Of a stretch of DNA of 49,280 nucleotides, positions 326 through 45,935 are shown in pieces. The stretch lies in assembly GCA_902761695.1 (NCBI GenBank), contig CACWLT010000001.1, forward strand, positions 1 to 49,280, in the 5' to 3' direction. Every line of letters starts with the position of its first letter. Position 1 is the first letter of the stretch. The notes under the pieces were generated by a model that made no database searches, was not told the origin of the DNA, and was given only the letters and a program-made list of their open reading frames with translations. The DNA comes from an uncultured Ruminococcus sp. (GTDB lineage Bacteria; Bacillota; Clostridia; Oscillospirales; CAG-272). The position numbers were made by a program, and so were the translations under genes.

Positions 326-390
326 GATGTCCTCCGGTGGGAGAAATAGAAAGCAAAGACTTCGCCTTTACGGAATCCTCCGCTGCACTT

Positions 391-598
391 CATAAACTCG
401 ACAGGGCATTCCTGCCCTATCGGTGGAGGAGGATGAAGTTTGACCTGAACTTCAAGCAAAGGGGAACGCTTAATCTGCCGAGGGGAACACTGTTTTTCGC
501 TTCGGTTTATCTCGTCGGACACTCCTTCCACCGCGAGCGGTCCCCCTCCCTCTGAGAGGGAGGCAGGAAGACGTCCTGTGCTGACTGAGGGAGTGTCC
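391..598 (+). repeat. Hairpin-rich intergenic element, copy E (subfamily shared with copy D at 10157-10380, opposite strand)
   Basis: 391-480 (+) aligns with the minus strand of 10250-10343. ATAAACT is followed by hairpin CGACAGGGCA-TTCC-TGCCCTATCG, against CGACGGAGCA-TTCC-TGCTCCGTCG in D (compensatory changes). Next comes GATGAAGTT..GAACTTCAA against GTGAAGTTC..GAACTTCAG, then the shared AAAGGGGAACGC. A long closing stem GGACACTCC 517-525 / GGAGTGTCC 590-598 encloses CCCTCCCTC-TGAG-AGGGAGG. Confidence 0.6.
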
Positions 599-6041: not shown

Positions 6042-7124
6042 ATGAAATCGGCTTTATTTTACCACAAACATATGAACAGTGTGTGTCGGCGGGGGGATTT
6101 TCCTGCCGGCGCGGGTCACGGAGGTTTGGAACATGATCCAGAGCATGAATTTTCCCTGTCGAAGGAGTGCGTTCTTCCCTGGGGCAGCTGGGACGCCCTT
6201 GCGGATGAGCTCCGGCGTCTGGGGCTGGACGGCGTGGAGGGGATCGCGGATCCGGATTACTACGACGACGCCTTCCCTGCTTCCCTGCTGACGGGCTACC
6301 ACATGACCTTCTATCCGGACTGGGTGGACTTCTGGCACGGGGATGAAGCAGCGCTGATCCGGAAATTCGGGAGTCTCGAGGGGGCGCGGGGCTTTTACCG
6401 CTGTGCCTCTCCGGAGGAGTTTCTCGGGCTGTTCCGGGCGGACTTCCGGCTGGCGCGGCGGCTGGGGGCGAGGTATCTGGTCTTTCACGTGTCGGACGTT
6501 TCCATCGAGGAGGGGTACACCTACCGCTGGGAGCACGGAGACAGGGAGGTCATGGACGCGGCGCTGGAAATCATCAACGCGGTTCTTGAGGACGCGGAGC
6601 CGGATTTCGACTTTCTCGTGGAGAACCAATGGTGGCCGGGGTTCACCTTTACGGAGCCGGAGAAGACGGAATATCTTCTGTCCCGCATCCGGTATCCGCG
6701 GGTGGGGATCATGCTGGACACGGGGCATCTGATGAACACGGAATGGAGGATCCGGACGCAGGCGGAGGGGGTGGACTACATCCTCGCCATGCTGGAGAAG
6801 CACGGTTCGCTCAGCCGGTATGTGAGGGGGCTGCATTTTCACGAGAGCCTCAGCGGGGCGTACTGCCGCAGAACCATCGGGCGGGTTCCGGACGGATTCC
6901 CTGAGGATTACTACGAGGCCTTCTCGGTCAGCTACGGGCACATTCTGAAAATCGACCGGCACAATCCCTGGACCGATCCCGCCTGCGTGCGGATTCTCGA
7001 CGCGGTAGGACCTCAGTATCTGACCCACGAGCTGTCCGCGAAGCCCCGGAGATCGCAGATCGCGGCGGTGCGGAGGCAGCTTGAGACGATACGGAAGGGG
7101 AAAAAGAAGGAGGACACACCGTAA
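6042..7124 (+). CDS. sugar phosphate isomerase/epimerase (xylose isomerase-like TIM barrel)
   Basis: ARYLVFHVSD....LVENQWWPG....IMLDTGHLMN pattern of the AP-endonuclease-2/xylose-isomerase-like barrel. The 5' end is doubtful. The first ~35 aa look non-protein, and a well-placed RBS+ATG at 6133 is in another frame (see finding). Confidence 0.7.
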   Translation: MKSALFYHKHMNSVCRRGDFPAGAGHGGLEHDPEHEFSLSKECVLPWGSWDALADELRRLGLDGVEGIADPDYYDDAFPASLLTGYHMTFYPDWVDFWHGDEAALIRKFGSLEGARGFYRCASPEEFLGLFRADFRLARRLGARYLVFHVSDVSIEEGYTYRWEHGDREVMDAALEIINAVLEDAEPDFDFLVENQWWPGFTFTEPEKTEYLLSRIRYPRVGIMLDTGHLMNTEWRIRTQAEGVDYILAMLEKHGSLSRYVRGLHFHESLSGAYCRRTIGRVPDGFPEDYYEAFSVSYGHILKIDRHNPWTDPACVRILDAVGPQYLTHELSAKPRRSQIAAVRRQLETIRKGKKKEDTP

Positions 7125-7159
7125 AAGGCATGTCCTCGTTCTTCTGCCGGTTAAAAATA

Positions 7160-7632
7160 TTCACAACCTCTGAAACTCCAATTATGACAAGACTTTCGAG
7201 GTAGTTATAGCCGCGGAATCGAACGTGCTGTTTCATCTGTCCTCTATCGCGCCTCGTGTCATGCGCGTTTCGATCGCTGTTTGCAGGTTACCAGCGCGAC
7301 TGCGTCGGCGCGGCAAACCGATGAACTTCGTCTCCGACGGAGTTCATCGCATGTTTCAGCTGACGCAGCGTGGTCCGCCGGAGTTGCGTCAGCAACTCCT
7401 GAAGAATGCAGAGCATTCTTCAGGCGAGGACTTGGGATATACAGTCGTTTTTCGATACAGTTGCGAGCTGTCAGGTTATGCTCTCCGGCCAAGGGGGACC
7501 CGCACGAGGGGCACCTTCGGCCTGAGATGGTGTCCCTCGTGCCTGCCCGTTGCATGACTGCGTCATGCGGCGTAGAGGACATTATTCCTGAAACGCGCAG
7601 CGTTTCTTTCCTCATAGTGTGAACACACTATG
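7160..7632 (+). ncRNA. Candidate structured RNA / hairpin-rich repeat element, copy A (family unidentified)
   Basis: Aligns with 45130-45540 (-) and 45600-45935 (+). It is a chain of hairpins with compensatory substitutions between copies (details in findings). It ends in hairpin GAAACGC-GCA-GCGTTTC (7590-7606) + TTTCC, then palindrome CATAGTGTG-AA-CACACTATG (7613-7632). A weak promoter-like ATGACA 7184-7189 / TATAGC 7206-7211 lies upstream. ORFs across it are not conserved between copies. Confidence 0.55.
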
Positions 7633-7652: not shown

Positions 7653-10136
<2,484 letters not shown>

Positions 10137-10156
10137 ATAGTACTCCTTCCGGAATA

Positions 10157-10380
10157 ATGCCCCTGCGCGGGGCAGGCGGCACAGGGGACACCCGTCCCGC
10201 GCAGGGACATATAATCCAGAAACCCGTAGGGTTTCCTTCCTTAATTCTGCCGACCGCAGTCGGCGTTCCCCTTTTCCTGAAGTTCTGCCTGAACTTCACC
10301 CTTCTCCGACGGAGCAGGAATGCTCCGTCGAGCAGTTTATAGCTGTTTGTTATACAGGCTATTATAAAAACGCGCGGGGG
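10157..10380 (-). repeat. Hairpin-rich element, copy D, inside the mcsB-clpC intergenic spacer
   Basis: Minus-strand 3' part ..CTGGATTATATGTCC..GGTGTCCCCTGTGCCGCCTGCCCCGCGCAGGGGCATTATTCC matches copies A/B/C (CAGGATTATGCTCC..GGTGTCCCTCCCCCGCGCCTGCCCCGCGTAGGGGCAT in B; CATTATTCC in A). The 5' part matches copy E. It runs straight into the clpC RBS (GGAAGGAG) and lacks the terminal hairpin and palindrome. Confidence 0.55.
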
Positions 10381-10507
10381 AGAGCCCTGTCCGAGACAGA
10401 GAACTCTTCCCCGCTTCCGTCCTGCGGAACAGCCTTATCCTATTTCGATCGCTCAATCCTTATTATAAACCGTCCCGGGCTGTTCCATGCCGATGTCGTC
10501 CTTTTTT

Positions 10508-17093: not shown

Positions 17094-17536
17094 GTTTCCA
17101 GCCCCTTTAAAGTTTCAATGAGTTTTGCCATTTTCTTGGTGTACACCTTCAGGGATTTCTCCCAGGTGGACGCGTAGTTTTTGTTGGCGATGGTGTTGAT
17201 GATGTCGCCCACGTCGCGGCTGAAGATGTAGTTGTTGTATTCCTCCAGCCAGAGGTTCCGCTCGTAGACGGCGTCGTCCACCACGTCCCCGGTCTGTTCG
17301 GCCGCATAGAAATCCTGCCACTGCTCGCAGGCCGCGAGAACATTGAAATCGACGCCGCCGAAATCCTCTTTCGGGACCGGTGGGGCGGTTTCGGCCTCCG
17401 TCTCCTCCTCCGCGGCGGGAGCGGAAGGGGTGAGGGCGGCGGACGTCTCTTCCGGCGGGCTGTCCGTTCCCGCACCGCAGGCAGCCAGAGAGAACAGAAT
17501 CGAAAGGGTCAGCAGAACAGCAAGCAGCTTCTTCAT
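17090..17536 (-). CDS. 148-aa lipoprotein derived from an internally deleted solute-binding-protein paralog (possible pseudogene remnant)
   Basis: The signal peptide + lipobox MKKLLAVLLTLSILFSLAAC is identical to that of the SBP at 17598..19067. N-terminal (DFGGVDFNVL..TGDVVDDAVYERN) and C-terminal (NYASTWEKSLKVYTKKMAKLIETL) pieces match the ends of that SBP. About 340 aa of the middle are missing. Confidence 0.6.
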   Translation of the reverse strand: MKKLLAVLLTLSILFSLAACGAGTDSPPEETSAALTPSAPAAEEETEAETAPPVPKEDFGGVDFNVLAACEQWQDFYAAEQTGDVVDDAVYERNLWLEEYNNYIFSRDVGDIINTIANKNYASTWEKSLKVYTKKMAKLIETLKGLET

Positions 17537-17597
17537 GAGTTCTTCTCCCTTCTGATCAGGTATCTGAGGCCTTCGGCTTAGAGGGGCATCCGTGCGG

Positions 17598-19067
17598 TCA
17601 GTCCCCGAGCTTCGCGACCTTCTCCATCATCTTTCCGAGCATCTTGTTCATCGCCTTGTTCTGCTTCTCAAACCACGAGGCATAATTCTCGTTTAGTCCC
17701 ACCGAAAGCGAGATGTCCGTGCTGTTCAGCGCGCCGGAATAAACGTAGGAAAAATCACAGTGGACGTTATCGAAGACGATGTCCAGCATCTCGGCGGACT
17801 CCGGATCATTGACGTATTTCTGGGACAGGGCAATGTCGTAGTACGCCGGCTTGACGTCCTTCCACGACTGGTATTCCAGCGCTTCCATCAGAACGGCGCT
17901 GCGGTCGGGATCGGGTGCGTCGATCGGGATCCCCGTGACAAAGACGGAGGAGACGGATCCGTACCGCTCCTGCTCCTCACGGAACTTCGGCGGGGTCAGA
18001 ATGCCGTAGGATCCCATTTCCCGCATGTCGTCCTTCTGCGCGTAGAACAGCTGGTTAAGGAAGAACAGAGCCCGGCCGGACGTGAACGCGATCCTCATGT
18101 TGTCGTAATTGTGCGGACCGCCCTTGTCGTAGCCGCTGTAATAGTAATCGGCGTTGTAGAGCAGCTTGTACAGCAGCGCGTTGTCCTCGTATACGTTCTC
18201 CGTCGGTACGGTGGCGGACAGGCTTCCGTCCTCGCCGAAGGTCACGTAGGAATAGCCGCTGGAGGGATACAGGAAGCCGATGCAGTCCCACTGGGAGGTG
18301 ATCCCGTACCGGTCCTTTTCGTCGTACTGCCCGTTTCCGTCGAGGTCGGTCAGGACGGCTTCGGAGACCTGCATCATATAGTCGAAGGTCCACTTGCCCT
18401 CCCGCACCGTGTCGTACAGATTCCCGATCCCATACTGCTCGGCAAGGTCCGCGGAGTAAAACGTGACGAGGGTCCGGGCCATGGAGGGCATGTCGAAGAA
18501 CCCGGCGGCGAACATCAGCTTGTCCCCGAGCTGGATGTTGTCGTTGACGAACTGCATGTACCACGGTCTGTCCAGATCGACATAGTCCATTTTGTTCAGG
18601 TTGCGGAAGCATCCGGCGAGCGCGGAGGTGCTGAGATAGCAGCAGACGCCCAGGGCCAGGTCATACGCTCCCGAGCCCGCCGAAACGGTGTTGATCAGCT
18701 CCTGCTGATTCCGCCATTTCGAGGCGTCCAGATTGTAGGTCAGGCGGACGTTGAAGCGGTCGGAGACGGCGTTGTTCCGGTTGAAAACCGCGTCGTTCAC
18801 CACATCTCCGGTCAGATCGGCGTTGTAGAAGACGTCGTATTCGAAGGTATCGCCCCAGATCGTGACGTCCGCGCCCCCGTAATCCGCCTCCGGAAGATCG
18901 TCTTTAATCTCCGGTTCCGTTTCCGCCGGGAGCTCCTCGGCGGGTGTCTGTCCTGCCGAGGACGGAGGGGCTTTCGAAGACTCTCCGGCGTCCCCGGATC
19001 CGTTCGCGCAGGCAGCCAGAGAGAACAGAATCGACAGGGTCAGCAGAACGGCAAGCAGCTTCTTCAT
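17598..19067 (-). CDS. ABC transporter extracellular solute-binding lipoprotein (carbohydrate type)
   Basis: 489 aa. Lipobox LFSLAAC and a Ser/Glu/Pro-rich linker. Paralogous to 23932..25395 (DYGGADVTIW.. vs DFGGADVTAL.., NRNNAVSDRFNVRLTY vs ERNNRVEEKYNVRLKF). Confidence 0.85.
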   Translation of the reverse strand: MKKLLAVLLTLSILFSLAACANGSGDAGESSKAPPSSAGQTPAEELPAETEPEIKDDLPEADYGGADVTIWGDTFEYDVFYNADLTGDVVNDAVFNRNNAVSDRFNVRLTYNLDASKWRNQQELINTVSAGSGAYDLALGVCCYLSTSALAGCFRNLNKMDYVDLDRPWYMQFVNDNIQLGDKLMFAAGFFDMPSMARTLVTFYSADLAEQYGIGNLYDTVREGKWTFDYMMQVSEAVLTDLDGNGQYDEKDRYGITSQWDCIGFLYPSSGYSYVTFGEDGSLSATVPTENVYEDNALLYKLLYNADYYYSGYDKGGPHNYDNMRIAFTSGRALFFLNQLFYAQKDDMREMGSYGILTPPKFREEQERYGSVSSVFVTGIPIDAPDPDRSAVLMEALEYQSWKDVKPAYYDIALSQKYVNDPESAEMLDIVFDNVHCDFSYVYSGALNSTDISLSVGLNENYASWFEKQNKAMNKMLGKMMEKVAKLGD

Positions 19068-19165
19068 GAGTTCTTCTCCCTTCTGAAATAGGAATCGTAC
19101 AGATTTCCGAGCAGTGCTGTGTGTTTTTGCGTGATCCCGCTTCGGTCACAAGGCGGCCGGCGGGG

Positions 19166-26756: not shown

Positions 26757-26785
26757 TTGCAATCCGGCCGGGTTTGTGCTATCGT
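26757..26785 (+). promoter_or_regulatory. sigmaA-type promoter for the XRE-HTH repeat protein
   Basis: -35 TTGCAA 26757-26762, 17-nt spacer, -10 TATCGT 26780-26785. Confidence 0.4.
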
Positions 26786-26869
26786 GGAGACACGGATCCG
26801 AACCGGCCGTCCGGCATCTGCGCAGAGGGCGGCTGTGAAAAAACATACATAATGACGAGGAGAACGGAT

Positions 26870-29209
26870 ATGACGGACAGAACCATCATCGGACAGCGCA
26901 TCGCGGAGCTGAGAAAGCAGAAGGGACTGACCCAGGCGGAGCTGGCGGACATGCTGGGCGTCACCCATCAGGCCGTGTCCCAGTGGGAACGCAGCGAGAC
27001 TCTGCCGGACATTCTGACCCTGCCCCGGATCGCGGAGATCTTCGGGGAGAACATCAACGCCATCCTGGGCCTTGAGGAAACCAAAACCGCGGAGGAGGGG
27101 CCCGTGCCCGCAGAAACCGAAGCACGGCAGGAGGACGGCGCGGCGGGTGAGGATATACCCCCGGAGGCCGCCTTTCCCGCCGGAGAGGAGACGTTTCCGG
27201 GCGAAGGGAAAGCCGAAGAAAAAGAAGAGAGCGGCGGAGATAACCCTCTCCATATCGATATCCCTCCGATCCCCGTCCCCGGCATGGGCGACCTCCCGAC
27301 CCCGCCGGTACAGGACAGGGAAGGCGCGGTGAACGCGGAGGATCTCAAGAAGGCGATGGCGGAGGCGGCGGACATGGCCCGTCAGCGTCAGGCAGCCATG
27401 AAGGCCTCCCTGAAGGACAAGGCGGAGGAATACCGGCGGATGGGCGAGGCAATGCGGCGTCAGGCGGCGGATATCGCGGAAAAGGCCCGCGCGGACGCGG
27501 CAAAGATGCGGGAAGAGGCAGCCAAAGCCAGGGACACCGCCCGTACCGAGGCCGCAAAAAAGCTGGAGGAAGCCATAGCGGAACGGAAGCGGAAGGAGGA
27601 AGAGCTGCGCGGCTGGGCGGAGGAATTTGACACCATGGGGAAGAGCCTCGAGGAGGAGGTCCGCACCCTGGAACCGGAATCTGACCGCATGGCCCCGGGA
27701 ATCGAATCGATGGAAGCGGAGCTTGACCGCATGAACCGGGAAATCGGGGCAATGGAGCCCCAATTCGACCGTATGGCCCGGGAGGCGGAGGAGACCGTTA
27801 CGAGGGAAATGGCGGCGCATACGGCGGCGGGAGAGAGCGGCGAGCACTTCCATGTGAACCCGGACGGCTGGTCCCTGCCCGCGTCGGAGGTTCAGTTCGA
27901 TTTCGGCGGGGAGGACGGGGAGTACGAGATCTGCTTCGTGAAGGACGGGAAGATCGTCACCTCCTTCACCGGCAATCCCGCTCATTTCGTCCACATCCAC
28001 GTGCACGGCGTGGGCGGCTCCCTGCGTTCCGAGCTGTCCGTGACCGTGGAGGGCGACGTGAACGGCAAGGCAGTCAGCGGACTGGACATGCTGGTGCGCG
28101 GAAACGTCAACGGTCCCGCCCAGGCCGGTCTGAACCTCACCTGCGGCGATGTCTGCGGAAACGCTAACGCCGGGCTGGAGCTGAAATGCGGCGCGGTGTC
28201 CGGGGAGAAATCTGCCGGAATCGGCGTGTCGGAGAACGGCGATGGGCATGAAAACGACGGCGCCAATGTGACCATCAACGGCGACTACTGCGGCGAGCTC
28301 TCCACGGCGGCCTCCGTGACGGTCAACGGCAATGTGGAGGGCAGCGTGTTCTCCTCCTCCGGCGTGCAGGTCAGCGGCAATGTGGAAGGCGACGTCACGG
28401 CGGACGGCACGGTCAGCATCGAGGGAGACGTTTCCGGCGACGTCACCGCGGCGGTGGATCTGACCGTGGACGGCGATGTGGACGGCGACGCCTCCGCCGG
28501 AAGGGATCTGACCGTGGACGGCGACGTGGACGGGGACGCCTCGGCCGAGGGCAATCTCCGCGTGGACGGCGACGTGGACGGGGATGCCTCCTGCGGCGGG
28601 GATCTGACCGTGGGCGGCAGCGTCTCCGGCGATTTCAGCCGCGCCGTAACGGCCAAAATCATGAACGCGGGGACCGGGAACGGCGACTCGGAGGTTCATA
28701 TCGACGGCGACTACGACGGGGATCTCTCCGGGGTGAACACTGTCATCGTGTCCGGCGACATCAACGGCGACGTGGCGGGCGCGCAGTCCGTCAGCGTGGG
28801 CGGCGACCTCAACGGGGAGATCAGCACCCAGGGCGATCTCAACCTGAGCGTAGGAGGCAGCGTCAGCGGAGATATCTCCTCCCGCAGCGGCACCGTCACC
28901 GTCGGCGGCGATGTGGGTGGAGATCTCAATGCGGGCGGAGCCGTAAACGCGGGCGGCAATGTCGGCGGTGACCTCAACGCGGGCGGTTCGGCCTCCGTGG
29001 GCGGAGAGGTCGGCGGCGATCTGGAAGCCGGACGGGACGTAAACGTAGGCGGCGATGTGAACGGCGAGGTGAACGCGGGCGGCAAGGTGTCCGTCACGGG
29101 CAGCGTCAGCGGGGATATCGACGCGGGCAGCACCGTCACCGTGGAAGGCGACGTGAACGGAGACATCGACGCCCAGAAGGTCATTGTCAGAGGAAAATAC
29201 GAGGAATGA
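26870..29209 (+). CDS. XRE-family HTH protein fused to an acidic linker, a long coiled coil and a C-terminal beta-helix-like G-D-V-x-G repeat region (bactofilin/DUF4097-like)
   Basis: ORF 26774..29209. ATG 26870 lies 7 nt after GAGGAG. The HTH is IIGQRIAELRKQKGLTQAELADMLGVTHQAVSQWERSE. The Ala/Glu/Arg-rich helical region spans roughly aa 150-330. From about aa 380 to the end there are dozens of GDVNG/GDVDG/GDLNG/GSVSG repeats. No transmembrane segment or signal peptide. Confidence 0.8.
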   Translation: MTDRTIIGQRIAELRKQKGLTQAELADMLGVTHQAVSQWERSETLPDILTLPRIAEIFGENINAILGLEETKTAEEGPVPAETEARQEDGAAGEDIPPEAAFPAGEETFPGEGKAEEKEESGGDNPLHIDIPPIPVPGMGDLPTPPVQDREGAVNAEDLKKAMAEAADMARQRQAAMKASLKDKAEEYRRMGEAMRRQAADIAEKARADAAKMREEAAKARDTARTEAAKKLEEAIAERKRKEEELRGWAEEFDTMGKSLEEEVRTLEPESDRMAPGIESMEAELDRMNREIGAMEPQFDRMAREAEETVTREMAAHTAAGESGEHFHVNPDGWSLPASEVQFDFGGEDGEYEICFVKDGKIVTSFTGNPAHFVHIHVHGVGGSLRSELSVTVEGDVNGKAVSGLDMLVRGNVNGPAQAGLNLTCGDVCGNANAGLELKCGAVSGEKSAGIGVSENGDGHENDGANVTINGDYCGELSTAASVTVNGNVEGSVFSSSGVQVSGNVEGDVTADGTVSIEGDVSGDVTAAVDLTVDGDVDGDASAGRDLTVDGDVDGDASAEGNLRVDGDVDGDASCGGDLTVGGSVSGDFSRAVTAKIMNAGTGNGDSEVHIDGDYDGDLSGVNTVIVSGDINGDVAGAQSVSVGGDLNGEISTQGDLNLSVGGSVSGDISSRSGTVTVGGDVGGDLNAGGAVNAGGNVGGDLNAGGSASVGGEVGGDLEAGRDVNVGGDVNGEVNAGGKVSVTGSVSGDIDAGSTVTVEGDVNGDIDAQKVIVRGKYEE
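28457..28600 (+). repeat. Three tandem 48-nt (16-aa) coding repeats within the HTH repeat protein
   Basis: Units 28457-28504, 28505-28552 and 28553-28600 encode DLTVDGDVDGDASAGR / DLTVDGDVDGDASAEG / NLRVDGDVDGDASCGG. Confidence 0.85.
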
Positions 29210-39476: not shown

Positions 39477-39548
39477 GGCGACATAGCCAAGCGGTAAGGC
39501 AGAGGTCTGCAAAACCTTCATTCTCCAGTTCGATTCTGGATGTCGCCT
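39477..39548 (+). tRNA. tRNA-Cys (anticodon GCA)
   Basis: Acceptor GGCGACA/TGTCGCC, D arm GCC-AAGCGGTAA-GGC, anticodon loop CTGCAAA, T arm TCCAG-TTCGATT-CTGGA. CCA is not encoded. Confidence 0.9.
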
Positions 39549-41356: not shown

Positions 41357-41428
41357 GCTGGTGTGGCTCAATGGCAGAGCAGCTGATTTGTAATCAGCAG
41401 GTTGTTGGTTCGACTCCGATCACCAGCT
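41357..41428 (+). tRNA. tRNA-Thr (anticodon TGT)
   Basis: Acceptor GCTGGTG/CACCAGC, D arm GCTC-AATGGCA-GAGC, anticodon arm GCTGA-TTTGTAA-TCAGC, T loop TTCGACT. Confidence 0.9.
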
Positions 41429-41465
41429 TGAGCGCAGCCCGGAACAAATTCCGTGCTGCCCTTAC

Positions 41466-41547
41466 GGGGGAATTCCCGAGTGGCCAAAGGGGACAGACTG
41501 TAAATCTGCTGGCACCGCCTTCGGTGGTTCGAATCCACCTTCCCCCA
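41466..41547 (+). tRNA. tRNA-Tyr (anticodon GTA), long variable arm
   Basis: Acceptor GGGGGAA/TTCCCCC, anticodon loop CTGTAAA, variable arm GGCACCGCC, T arm GGTGG-TTCGAAT-CCACC. Confidence 0.9.
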
Positions 41548-41560
41548 TCCAAATAAAAAC

Positions 41561-41587
41561 GGACGCCTCGCGCGTCCATTTTTATTT
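41561..41587 (+). terminator. Terminator after the tRNA pair
   Basis: GGACGC-CTCGC-GCGTCC followed by ATTTTTATTT. Confidence 0.65.
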
Positions 41588-41595
41588 GGATTCCG

Positions 41596-41885
41596 ATCAG
41601 GTGGATTCGAAGGGCGCGTGTCAGAAACCAGTCCGGGGGACTGTTTTCCCGCGCCCCGGCCGATCCGAGGATCGGCGAATCCACCGCCGTTAAAGCTCAG
41701 CTGTCCCGCATCCCCCTCCTGCGAATTCCGCGCCCCGGCCAAACTGTCAGTAAACTGACACCGCAGATCGGCGCCGATTGAAAATCGGAGATCCACCGTC
41801 ACTAACTCAAAGCTGTCCCGCGTCCCCCTTCTCTGGTACCCGCTCACCCGGATTCGAAGGGCGCGTGTCAGAAAACAGTCTCCCC
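41596..41885 (+). repeat. Block of interspersed direct repeats with tRNA-fragment-like words
   Basis: GGATTCGAAGGGCGCGTGTCAGAAA(C/A)CAGTC at 41603-41634 and 41850-41880. CGCGCCCCGGCC at 41650-41661 and 41729-41740. ATCCACCG..AAAGCT..CTGTCCCGC(A/G)TCCCCCT at about 41669-41710 and 41781-41830. Several small hairpins lie between them. Confidence 0.6.
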
Positions 41886-45129: not shown

Positions 45130-45540
45130 CCGGATCGTAATGATAGTGTGTTCACACTATTAAGGAAAGAAAACTTTCCTTCGCATAAGGAAACAAACGC
45201 TGCGCGTTTGGAAACGGTTTATGCCCCTACGCGGGGCAGGCGCGGGGGAGGGACACCATCTCAGGCCGAAGGTGCCCCTCCCCCGAGGGTCCCCCTTGGC
45301 CGAGGAGCATAATCCTGGCTACCCATATCTGAATCGAAAATCGATTGTACATCCCATGTCCACGCACGGAGAATGCAAAGCATTCTCCTGGAGTTGCTTT
45401 GCAACTCCAGCGGACCACGGTGCGTCAGCTGAAACATACGTGAAACTACGTCAAGGACGCAGTTTCACGGTTTCCTGCGCCGACGCAGTCGCGCTGGAGC
45501 CTCGGAAACAGCGATCGAAGCGCGCATTGGGCAAGGTGCT
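45130..45540 (-). ncRNA. Candidate structured RNA / hairpin-rich repeat element, copy B
   Basis: The reverse complement aligns with copy A over its whole length. Big stem-loop at 45244-45284, terminal hairpin at 45194-45210, palindrome ATAGTGTG-TT-CACACTAT at 45143-45160. There is an extra ~27-nt insertion (45161-45190) duplicating the CTTTCCT region. The 3' end lies about 30 nt upstream of the GH38 start codon on the same strand. Confidence 0.55.
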
Positions 45541-45599
45541 GGACTTTGAACTTCGCTGTTCTATTCAAAGACAGATTTGAATTCGCGAGGCTGAACTAT

Positions 45600-45935
45600 C
45601 AGTCTCATCTTTTCTCCTTCGCGACCGTGTAATGCGCGTTTCGATCGCTGTTTGCGTCGCCGGCCCGGCAGAGCAAACCGATGAACTTCGTCCCCGACGG
45701 AGTTCATCGCATGTTTCAACTGTACTAACACAGTCCGCGCGAGGACATGAGATACACAATCGATTTTCGATTCAGCTACGAGCTGTCAGGTTATGCCATA
45801 CGGCCAAGGAAACCCCCGCACGGGGGGAAACCTTCGGCCTGAGATGGTGTCCCCCCGTGCCTCCCGCCCTGAGCAAGGGCATTCAATTTGAAACGCGCAG
45901 CGTTTCTTTCCTTTTCGTGTGAACCCACTATAGTA
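45600..45935 (+). ncRNA. Candidate structured RNA / hairpin-rich repeat element, copy C (about 60-nt internal deletion)
   Basis: Aligns with copy A. Stems at 45650-45655/45673-45678, 45680-45687/45701-45708 and 45818-45832/45846-45860, terminal hairpin at 45890-45906, degenerate palindrome at 45916-45933. It lacks the two hairpins found at 7380-7424 in A. It is divergent (head-to-head) with copy B. Confidence 0.55.

Follow-up and report, generated by a model that had tools for sequence, protein, structure and literature searches.

A 49,280-nt stretch of DNA from an uncultured Ruminococcus sp. (assembly GCA_902761695.1, contig CACWLT010000001.1, positions 1 to 49,280), referred to at its full length as the window, carries several copies of a hairpin-dense element. 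The element is one of a family of interspersed repeats in rumen Oscillospiraceae that are non-coding and modular and have not been described before, with a behaviour like that of REP/BIME, BOX, ERIC or Correia elements. The family is new, and is unusually large and ornate. A sequence-only reading of the window had picked out three copies, A, B and C, and had proposed them as a candidate structured RNA. That these copies are homologous, rich in hairpins and set apart by pair-preserving double substitutions is borne out, as are their coordinates and sequences, and no reading frame is conserved among copies, as had also been said. A discrete three-copy RNA gene did not survive the analysis, and is replaced by a modular interspersed repeat that is found genome-wide, is polymorphic and reaches dozens of copies in a genome. 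The copies have probably spread in trans or by recombination and are probably for the most part co-transcribed with their neighbours.

Chance as the origin of the window copies is excluded. A two-motif pattern, CGGCCAAGG-N10-40-TTCGGCCTGAGAT, has three matches in the window and none in any of 100 shuffles, and the sense strand of copy A folds at -193.6 kcal/mol (z = -8.2). The same pattern was found at 60 loci in species-representative genomes, 55 of which lie in four rumen metagenome-assembled genomes (MAGs), namely RUG12770 (with about 45 copies), Oscillospiraceae SIG615, RUG12348 and one reindeer MAG; the remaining five fall by chance within a conserved proteobacterial coding region and are unrelated. 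A separate scan with the conserved 5' motif, ATGCGCGYTTCGATCGCTGTTT, added 73 contigs from rumen metagenomes and, from IMG/VR, a single contig with a capsid gene on it. With a covariance model built on 122 core positions, 153 matches were obtained in 660 kb, and more than 130 distinct cores were found across the four rumen MAGs, the 73 metagenome contigs and the one phage-like contig. Metagenome contigs from STEW19-1 are 100% identical to the window, and two of them end inside copies C and A, as expected of a repeat. The absence of any known RNA class, on which the proposed novelty of the element depended, was upheld in Rfam 15, where the whole window at gathering score yields three tRNAs only. 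At permissive thresholds (E <= 1-10) copy A, the B/C region and a full-length RUG12770 copy gave only chance-level matches, well below gathering score, with HEARO, IS605-orfB, group II intron, T-box, ROOL, GOLLD, OLE, raiA and the ribozymes among the families considered, the HEARO and IS605-orfB models being assumed to be present in the Rfam 15 library. A match to MIR4416 was rejected, as it merely reflects the B/C inverted repeat. Our literature search found no description of the element family, which, having neither an Rfam match nor a literature account, is undescribed.

The structural signal in the family is clear. In an alignment of 148 distinct copies fitted to the covariance model, with pair statistics that ignore kinship among copies, 93.0% of cells are paired, compared with 77.1% in shuffles and 39-58% with partners slid, and 24 of 27 pairs show double changes on both sides, so that the helices covary beyond these controls. 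The covariation first noticed among three copies was thus kept once many more were aligned (about 148 distinct copies), the helices being held by compensatory change. Stem (i) does pass from GTTTGC/GCAAAC to GTTTCC/GGAAAC in copy B, and these two forms occur 48 and 18 times in the family beside GTTTTC/GAAAAC (12) and GTTTTC/GGAAAC (four), its variable pair taking G:C, C:G and U:A; in copy A the helix encloses an inserted mini-hairpin, GCGCGAC-TGC-GTCGGCGC. Stem (ii), also as described, has 45 sequence variants family-wide, of which 33 form an unbroken helix of 13-14 bp and the rest are shorter or interrupted hairpins; in copy A it is a 13-bp hairpin, and a U.G wobble at one position is usual. 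The reported stem (iii) is real and forms half of a 46-nt twin-hairpin module, which copy C lacks, stem (iv) covaries strongly in the 148-copy alignment, and the terminal stem (vi) takes the forms GAAACGC, GAAAGGC, GAAACCC, CAAACGC and GCAAATGC, every one of them paired. Stem (v) stands only in part. The segment GCATGAC-TGC-GTCATGC of copy A pairs as claimed, but it is an inserted mini-hairpin of the same type as the one within helix (i), and not the homologue of GCCCC/GGGGC in B and C, which carry the ordinary second core hairpin at this place.

Two further claims, on the core loop and its long-range pairing, were likewise upheld in part. The 13-nt loop described as invariant is so within the window; elsewhere it reads UGCGGCCUGAGCU or UACGGCCUGAGUU, and its positions 2 and 12 covary (UA 88, GC 18, AU 3), so that the true loop is the 7-nt GGCCUGA, which is present in 90 copies, with GGCCAGA in 14 and GGCUUGA in three. 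Of the pseudoknot that had been thought possible between this loop and an upstream segment, the GGCC:GGCC half is paired in all 108 cells and shows three A:U double changes, whereas the AAGG:CCUU half fails in 18 copies and competes with the covarying loop-closing pairs. The loop of the terminal hairpin is C-GNA-G in 130 of 139 copies, the middle base being free, and GNA loops are also present in other modules (GC-AGA-GC, GC-GGA-GC, GAC-GAA-GTC). Triloops of the form NGNAN', for example d(GCGAAGC), are a specially stable class for DNA, not for RNA, and the prevalence of C-GNA-G therefore points to folding as single-stranded DNA (ssDNA) as much as RNA. G.U recurs at fixed positions in two helices (at one pair in 68 copies), and one G.U in the stem of the main core hairpin recurs family-wide; over all helices G.U outnumbers A.C by 137 to 68, a difference that shrinks to 69 versus 68 after one column is dropped. 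In folding energy the sense strand has an advantage of 23 kcal/mol over the antisense strand. A terminator scan marks the terminal hairpin in B and in C and passes over the one in A, and the tail is UUUCCUU, not a U-run. Selection in RNA and selection in ssDNA both fit this structural signal. Compensatory differences can also come from differing source copies of a proliferating repeat, and as such are no proof that each copy is a functional RNA.

The features of the window that belong to the family are collected in Table 1.

Table 1. Element copies in the window and the parts of copy A, in window coordinates.
Feature	Position	Strand	Description
Copy A	7203..7631	+	Single arm; core 7476-7614 scores 99.4 bits (covariance model)
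Conserved 5' motif ATGCGCGYTTCGATCGCTGTTT	7261..7282	+	Common to SIG615 and 73 rumen-metagenome loci
5' helices (i) and (ii)	7279..7348	+	Helix (i) 7279-7284/7313-7318; helix (ii) 7320-7348
46-nt twin-hairpin module	7379..7424	+	GGAGTTGC..GCAACTCC plus GAAGAATGC-AGA-GCATTCTTC
Upstream GGCC	7487..7490	+	Can form 4-bp pseudoknot with loop GGCC
Main core hairpin	7502..7542	+	14-bp stem, U.U mismatch, two closing pairs, loop GGCCUGA 7519-7525
Terminal hairpin and pyrimidine tract	7590..7613	+	GAAACGC-GCA-GCGTTTC (C-GNA-G triloop), then TTTCCTC
3'-terminal palindrome ATAGTGTGAACACACTAT	7614..7631	+	Inter-copy similarity stops directly 3' of the palindrome
Copy B	45143..45567	-	Left arm of head-to-head dimer; 124.3 bits
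Dimer junction	45528..45631	.	Asymmetric, conserved; near-identical in locus L075, recognisable in 12 dimers
Copy C	45583..45931	+	Right arm of dimer; 128.7 bits
Fragment D	10137..10345	+	mcsB-clpC spacer; 48.5 bits; absent from the sequence-only reading
Fragment E	~330-470	-	Downstream modules (GAAGTTCAGGTCAAACTTC, GGGCAGGAATGCCC); absent from the sequence-only reading

Copy A, whose extent takes in about 55 nt of conserved 5' flank (CCGCGG...TCGCGCC..TGTC) before the 5' motif, is flanked by the convergent 3' ends of a TIM-barrel sugar isomerase gene (plus strand) and clpC (minus strand), and the tract after its terminal hairpin is anti-Shine-Dalgarno-like. The 3' end of copy B is about 40 nt before the start codon of a GH38 alpha-mannosidase gene, in sense orientation, and copy C, which also has no mini-hairpin in helix (i), faces the 3' end of an aldo/keto reductase gene. 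A covariance-model match at 10120-10243 marks a fourth element site in the window, where fragment D has a partial core in inverted orientation, together with the second core hairpin, whose loop is GCGYA, the terminal hairpin with a GNA loop and another three hairpin modules. A hairpin of fragment E (GAA loop) resembles the terminal hairpin and directly precedes the Shine-Dalgarno sequence and ATG of a gene starting at 325. Spurious open reading frames (ORFs) of 96-119 aa arise from the elements at 6928-7236 (-), 7225-7557 (+), 7259-7615 (-), 45221-45580 (+) and 45632-45922 (+), and automatic annotation could label such element-derived ORFs hypothetical proteins.

The family is modular in its small hairpins and in the arrangement of its arms. 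The twin-hairpin module occupies a different site in other copies, inside CGGCCAA^GG, and next to the core loop, on its 5' side, different copies carry differing inserted hairpins. The mini-hairpin GCRCGAC-TGC-GTCGGYGC was seen at several positions of the element (in the region of L053:7843, in L056 and L060, and at window 7295-7312), and as three tandem copies, and it behaves like a tiny self-expanding module. A recurrent hairpin, GACGG(N)-CAGGAAUG-(N)CCGUC, with GGA in its loop, occurs at window 10300-10330, in L010, L012 and L028 and elsewhere, and resembles the CsrA-binding consensus RUACARGGAUGU. The copies of RUG12770 have an extra 5' extension that ends at the palindrome GTTTCACGTGAAAC and stop-codon-rich heptamer repeats; the element is about 60% G+C. 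This 14-nt palindrome is extremely abundant in RUG12770 (L004-L060, for example L012:1100-1300), is absent from the window, and lies at the centre or at the boundary of repeats of several types. As a rule, degenerate heptamers rich in TAG, TGA and TAA (GGCTAGT, GAGTTAG, GAATTCA), which start right after stop codons, come before it. Scans of the metagenome and viral collections with the 5' motif found no autonomous version with an ORF splitting the two halves of the element, the apparent exceptions being hairpin-insertion or -deletion variants and one unrelated match, L106.

Twelve head-to-head pairs, B/C among them, were found with gaps of 360-500 nt, and no close tail-to-tail or tandem pairs. 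Both arms of such a dimer face outward, towards the flanking genes. In 10 of the 12 dimers the partner arm ranks only 16-132 of 132 in identity, and since dimer arms are thus usually not mutual closest relatives, each arm is likely to fold alone. Inspection by eye of the dimers in the window and in L075, which was no systematic search, showed neither a target-site duplication nor a terminal inverted repeat of the classical kind, and single arms are without a terminal inverted repeat. A 15-codon junction ORF with a Shine-Dalgarno sequence (45557-45607, minus strand; MRLIVQPREFKSVFE and stop), reading from the 5' flank of C towards B, was considered and discarded, since dimers conserve neither its start codon nor its frame; similar peptides, MKLKVQ(P/L)RG..., can be read in some other dimers, often with the start codon missing.

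Almost all cores (129 of 133 distinct ones) are located outside gene calls. Intercistronic spacers are among the sites, a copy there typically coming after a stop codon or terminator and before the Shine-Dalgarno sequence that follows, and several copies are inside universally conserved operons (mcsB-clpC, atp and nusA-infB). By arrangement, 51 cores are co-directional with their neighbours in sense and 28 in antisense, 11 are convergent and five divergent, and the upstream gene is on the same strand as the element in 73 cases versus 38 (p = 0.001). The genes directly downstream are unrelated to one another, and include valS, atpA, dnaG, purA, ylxR, ecfA, nagB and those of solute-binding proteins, so that a constant sense orientation before functionally related genes, as of a riboswitch or leader, is not what we find. 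As had been noted for the window, no transposase, TnpB, IscB or reverse transcriptase gene adjoins any copy examined. Clustering of 1046 flank ORFs gave no shared transposase, only ordinary metabolic gene families such as those of sugar metabolism, and the ORF families that recur at the 55 rumen-MAG loci are solute-binding proteins, Gfo/Idh/MocA oxidoreductases and ABC ATPases. No Y1/HUH gene, RAYT included, is present among the ORFs of about 800 kb of flanking sequence. Promoter scans upstream of copy A and in the B/C junction returned nothing convincing, and no promoter was seen by eye to be conserved in dimer centres.

Comparison between relatives indicates that the copies turn over. At one orthologous spacer the element is inverted between SIG615 and RUG12770, and upstream of an orthologous oxidoreductase gene each copy is closer to its own genome's subfamily than to its counterpart. 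In the mcsB-clpC spacer the first ~165 nt, terminator included, are common to a relative with a 96%-identical McsB, and beyond these come about 215 nt of element modules in the window, as against 62 unrelated nt in the relative. This spacer (10137-10507, 371 nt, inside the ctsR-mcsA-mcsB-clpC operon) holds a terminator-like hairpin, GGGGAAGAG..CTCTCCCC, and a T-run, which are present in the close relative as well and are followed by the element modules, the inverted partial core abutting the clpC Shine-Dalgarno sequence. A search for an empty site at copy A by way of homologues of the TIM-barrel gene was uninformative, as synteny is not conserved.

Arms are 350-450 nt long and are made up of the 5' motif, the two covarying 5' helices, a core and the pyrimidine tract UUCCUU. 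Three hairpins form the core, namely a long one whose GGCCUGA loop can pair with the upstream GGCC, a second one with the loop GCGYA, and a third, of 7-8 bp, whose loop is GNA. Small hairpin modules can be added at several sites of the arm, and arms exist singly, as in A, or as head-to-head dimers around a conserved junction, as in B/C. Copies build up only in free DNA between genes, intercistronic spacers included, and turn over between related genomes. In the model that we favour, they would have spread in trans as non-autonomous elements or through recombination or gene conversion between copies. They would mostly be co-transcribed with the flanking genes, and would fold on the sense strand into the conserved hairpins, which may act generically on the host transcript, as an exonuclease barrier, a processing site or an attenuator, and not as a ligand- or target-specific RNA.

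Several known systems share parts of this behaviour, and the nearest to it are REP/BIME/REPIN and the pneumococcal BOX elements, with neither of which the family is homologous; it is also far more elaborate in structure. REP, BIME and REPIN sequences of Enterobacteria and Pseudomonas, which are known as mRNA stabilisers or attenuators, are alike in having tens to hundreds of strictly extragenic copies, rare between divergent genes and sited after stop codons or terminators and inside operons, in being mosaics of conserved motifs that exist as inverted doublets and singlets, and in lacking target-site duplications; recurrent inverted doublets are found in our family also, as the 12 head-to-head pairs. 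However, REP units are simple palindromes of 20-40 nt, while an arm of the element is a 350-450-nt structure with at least seven distinct helices and a possible pseudoknot. REP and REPIN sequences further differ in having a RAYT gene and co-evolving arms, of which the first is missing from the element flank ORFs and the second is at odds with the ranks of partner arms given above, and no sequence similarity is evident. The BOX elements of S. pneumoniae, composed of boxA, boxB(n) and boxC, are 67-637 bp long, highly base-paired and intergenic, are co-transcribed and able to alter the expression of neighbouring genes, and have slow current mobility (PMC3049150). Like the element, BOX, and also RUP and SPRITE, are modular, intergenic and highly paired, and they are a precedent for structured repeats that affect their neighbours (PMC3049150). 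BOX differs in its mutually pairing terminal inverted repeats, in its presumed mobilisation as a MITE, and in hosts, base composition and sequence; in our family neither terminal inverted repeats nor a direct duplication were seen at the two dimers inspected by eye, without a systematic search.

Non-autonomous IS200/IS605 derivatives (PATEs) and the TnpB/IscB guide RNAs (omega RNA, HEARO), a group that includes pseudoknotted RNA scaffolds, are similarly structured, multi-copy and non-coding, with no target-site duplication and a sharp 3' boundary. Unlike these, none of the more than 130 element copies has TnpA, TnpB or IscB beside it, no linkage of any copy to tnpA, tnpB or iscB was found at the 55 MAG loci or among the window neighbours, and there is no Rfam match; the ends of the element also bear no similar subterminal hairpins. 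Clostridial intercistronic stem-loops are reported to set mRNA processing and stability, as in the cip-cel operon of Ruminiclostridium cellulolyticum (PMC10311766). These stem-loops resemble the element in lying between cistrons and in their likely mode of action on the transcript, and are unlike it in being unique and locus-specific, with no dispersed homologous family.

How the structure is selected has one main rival account, that of a mobile ssDNA element whose hairpins are selected on the lagging-strand template and recognised by an HUH/Y1-type enzyme encoded elsewhere, RNA structure being a by-product; REP/REPIN with RAYT and the non-autonomous IS200/IS605 derivatives (PATEs) are precedents. 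We regard this as a lesser but real possibility. It would account for the C-GNA-G terminal loop and the GNA loops of other modules, for the REPIN-like occurrence of head-to-head doublets beside singlets, and for the failure to see a target-site duplication or classical terminal inverted repeat by eye in two dimers; the 2:1 gene-sense bias is that of the lagging-strand template for co-oriented genes, and the fixed wobbles can be read as G.T in DNA, which tolerates that mismatch. Yet the ~800 kb of flanks hold no Y1/HUH gene, the ends show no evident conservation of a target tetranucleotide, a REP unit is only a tenth as long as the element, and its dimer arms are mostly not closest relatives, so that arm-to-arm pairing is not kept as it is in REPINs. 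Two other rivals fit the distribution poorly. One is that of stand-alone non-coding RNA genes, each with its own promoter, ended by the terminal hairpin and having a specific trans-acting or catalytic function. In its favour are the strong covariation, fixed G.U, near-invariant loops and peripheral insertions that spare the core, a pattern usual among functional RNAs, together with a tertiary GGCC:GGCC pairing that is never broken, a terminator-like hairpin and U/C tract, and the lack of any matching Rfam family. We nevertheless consider such genes quite improbable, as no promoter-like site is found upstream of A, in the B/C junction or conserved in dimer centres, the tail UUUCCUU has no U-run, dozens of diverged copies per genome include many that are truncated or rearranged, copies are inside operons in either orientation, and turnover between relatives is fast.

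A cis-regulatory leader, whether riboswitch, protein-dependent attenuator or anti-Shine-Dalgarno switch, that controls the downstream gene seems very unlikely. It has in its favour that in about 20% of copies a Shine-Dalgarno sequence and start codon follow the terminal hairpin and UUCCUU on the same strand at 17-30 nt, an arrangement repeated in copy B and fragment E, where the start codon lies ~100 and ~35 nt beyond the hairpin, respectively. UUCCUU can, moreover, pair with Shine-Dalgarno sequences, and dimer arms face outward to flanking genes. Against it, no function is common to the downstream genes, the co-directional cases include 28 antisense ones out of 79, the 11 convergent copies include A and C, orientation differs at an orthologous site, and closeness to a Shine-Dalgarno sequence is expected anyway of an element that fills a short spacer. 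There is, finally, hardly any likelihood that the covariation is a mutational artefact, in which within-strand templated mutation or gene conversion between palindrome halves yields 'compensatory' changes without structural selection. In its favour, perfect palindromes are frequent among the stems, and entire hairpins have been exchanged or duplicated in tandem (GCACGACTGCGTCGGTGC x3), but non-palindromic features are fixed as well, including G.U in 68 copies, the U.U mismatch, bulges and the asymmetric loops GGCCUGA, GNA and GCGYA, and the 4-bp long-range GGCC pairing has compensatory A:U changes.

The interspersed repeat that we favour has points against it too. At the loci examined we found no mobilising enzyme, terminal inverted repeat or target-site duplication, and for this reason mobility is deduced only from the way the copies are distributed and from their polymorphism. 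Most copies in a given genome have diverged by more than 7%, which indicates that there was no recent burst, and the sole comparison of a filled with an empty site, at mcsB-clpC, shows sequence replacement and not clean insertion. The ~20% of copies near start codons could reflect a specific leader function, not mere lack of room. The near-fixed core loop and the GNA loops suggest a specific partner, which a purely generic structural role does not explain. It is conceivable, if unlikely, that the arm is a self-folding machine with such a partner, and would represent either a new class of mobile structured RNA or a new type of ssDNA transposon with 400-nt arms. Under the same modest expectation for both forms taken jointly, the RNA version might be a processing or ribozyme-like module or a scaffold for an RNA-guided or RNA-binding protein, and the ssDNA version might be mobilised by an enzyme yet to be named. 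If this were true, such an element would have spread through the operons of an entire clade of uncultured bacteria of the rumen.

Other repeats were noticed alongside the family. Within the gene at 26774-29209 of the window there is an array of 48-nt (16-codon) periodic repeats, rich in G, D and V (28040-29170). An 80-nt segment is present twice at 98% identity (17476-17555 and 19007-19086), across the starts of two adjacent minus-strand genes, and spans the start codon, a signal-peptide-like region and the Shine-Dalgarno sequence; its sequence suggests that it may be a recent duplication or conversion between paralogues. Three tRNA genes and, just downstream of the tRNA pair, a 52-nt direct repeat (81% identity) are located within the segments 39477-39548, 41357-41547 and 41582-41880. 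On another rumen contig (L137:4560-4900) an unrelated tandem repeat of about 100 nt, GGCTGACAGTAGCGAGAATTCCC..., is present in three copies after a homologue of the TIM-barrel gene.

If the interspersed-repeat reading is true, an abundant clade of uncultured rumen Oscillospiraceae has filled its spacers, some of them in universally conserved operons, with one ornate repeat family, which would combine REP/BIME-like behaviour with a size and complexity normally confined to functional RNAs. This would have practical consequences for assembly and binning, as contigs break at the elements, and for annotation, as ORFs of 100-120 aa that are spurious, and erroneous calls of 'novel ncRNA', stem from the elements. 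Operon transcripts in these bacteria should be affected in processing, stability and read-through by intercistronic structures of 350-950 nt, and the more than 130 natural variants of the family offer material for asking whether its structure is selected in RNA or in ssDNA.

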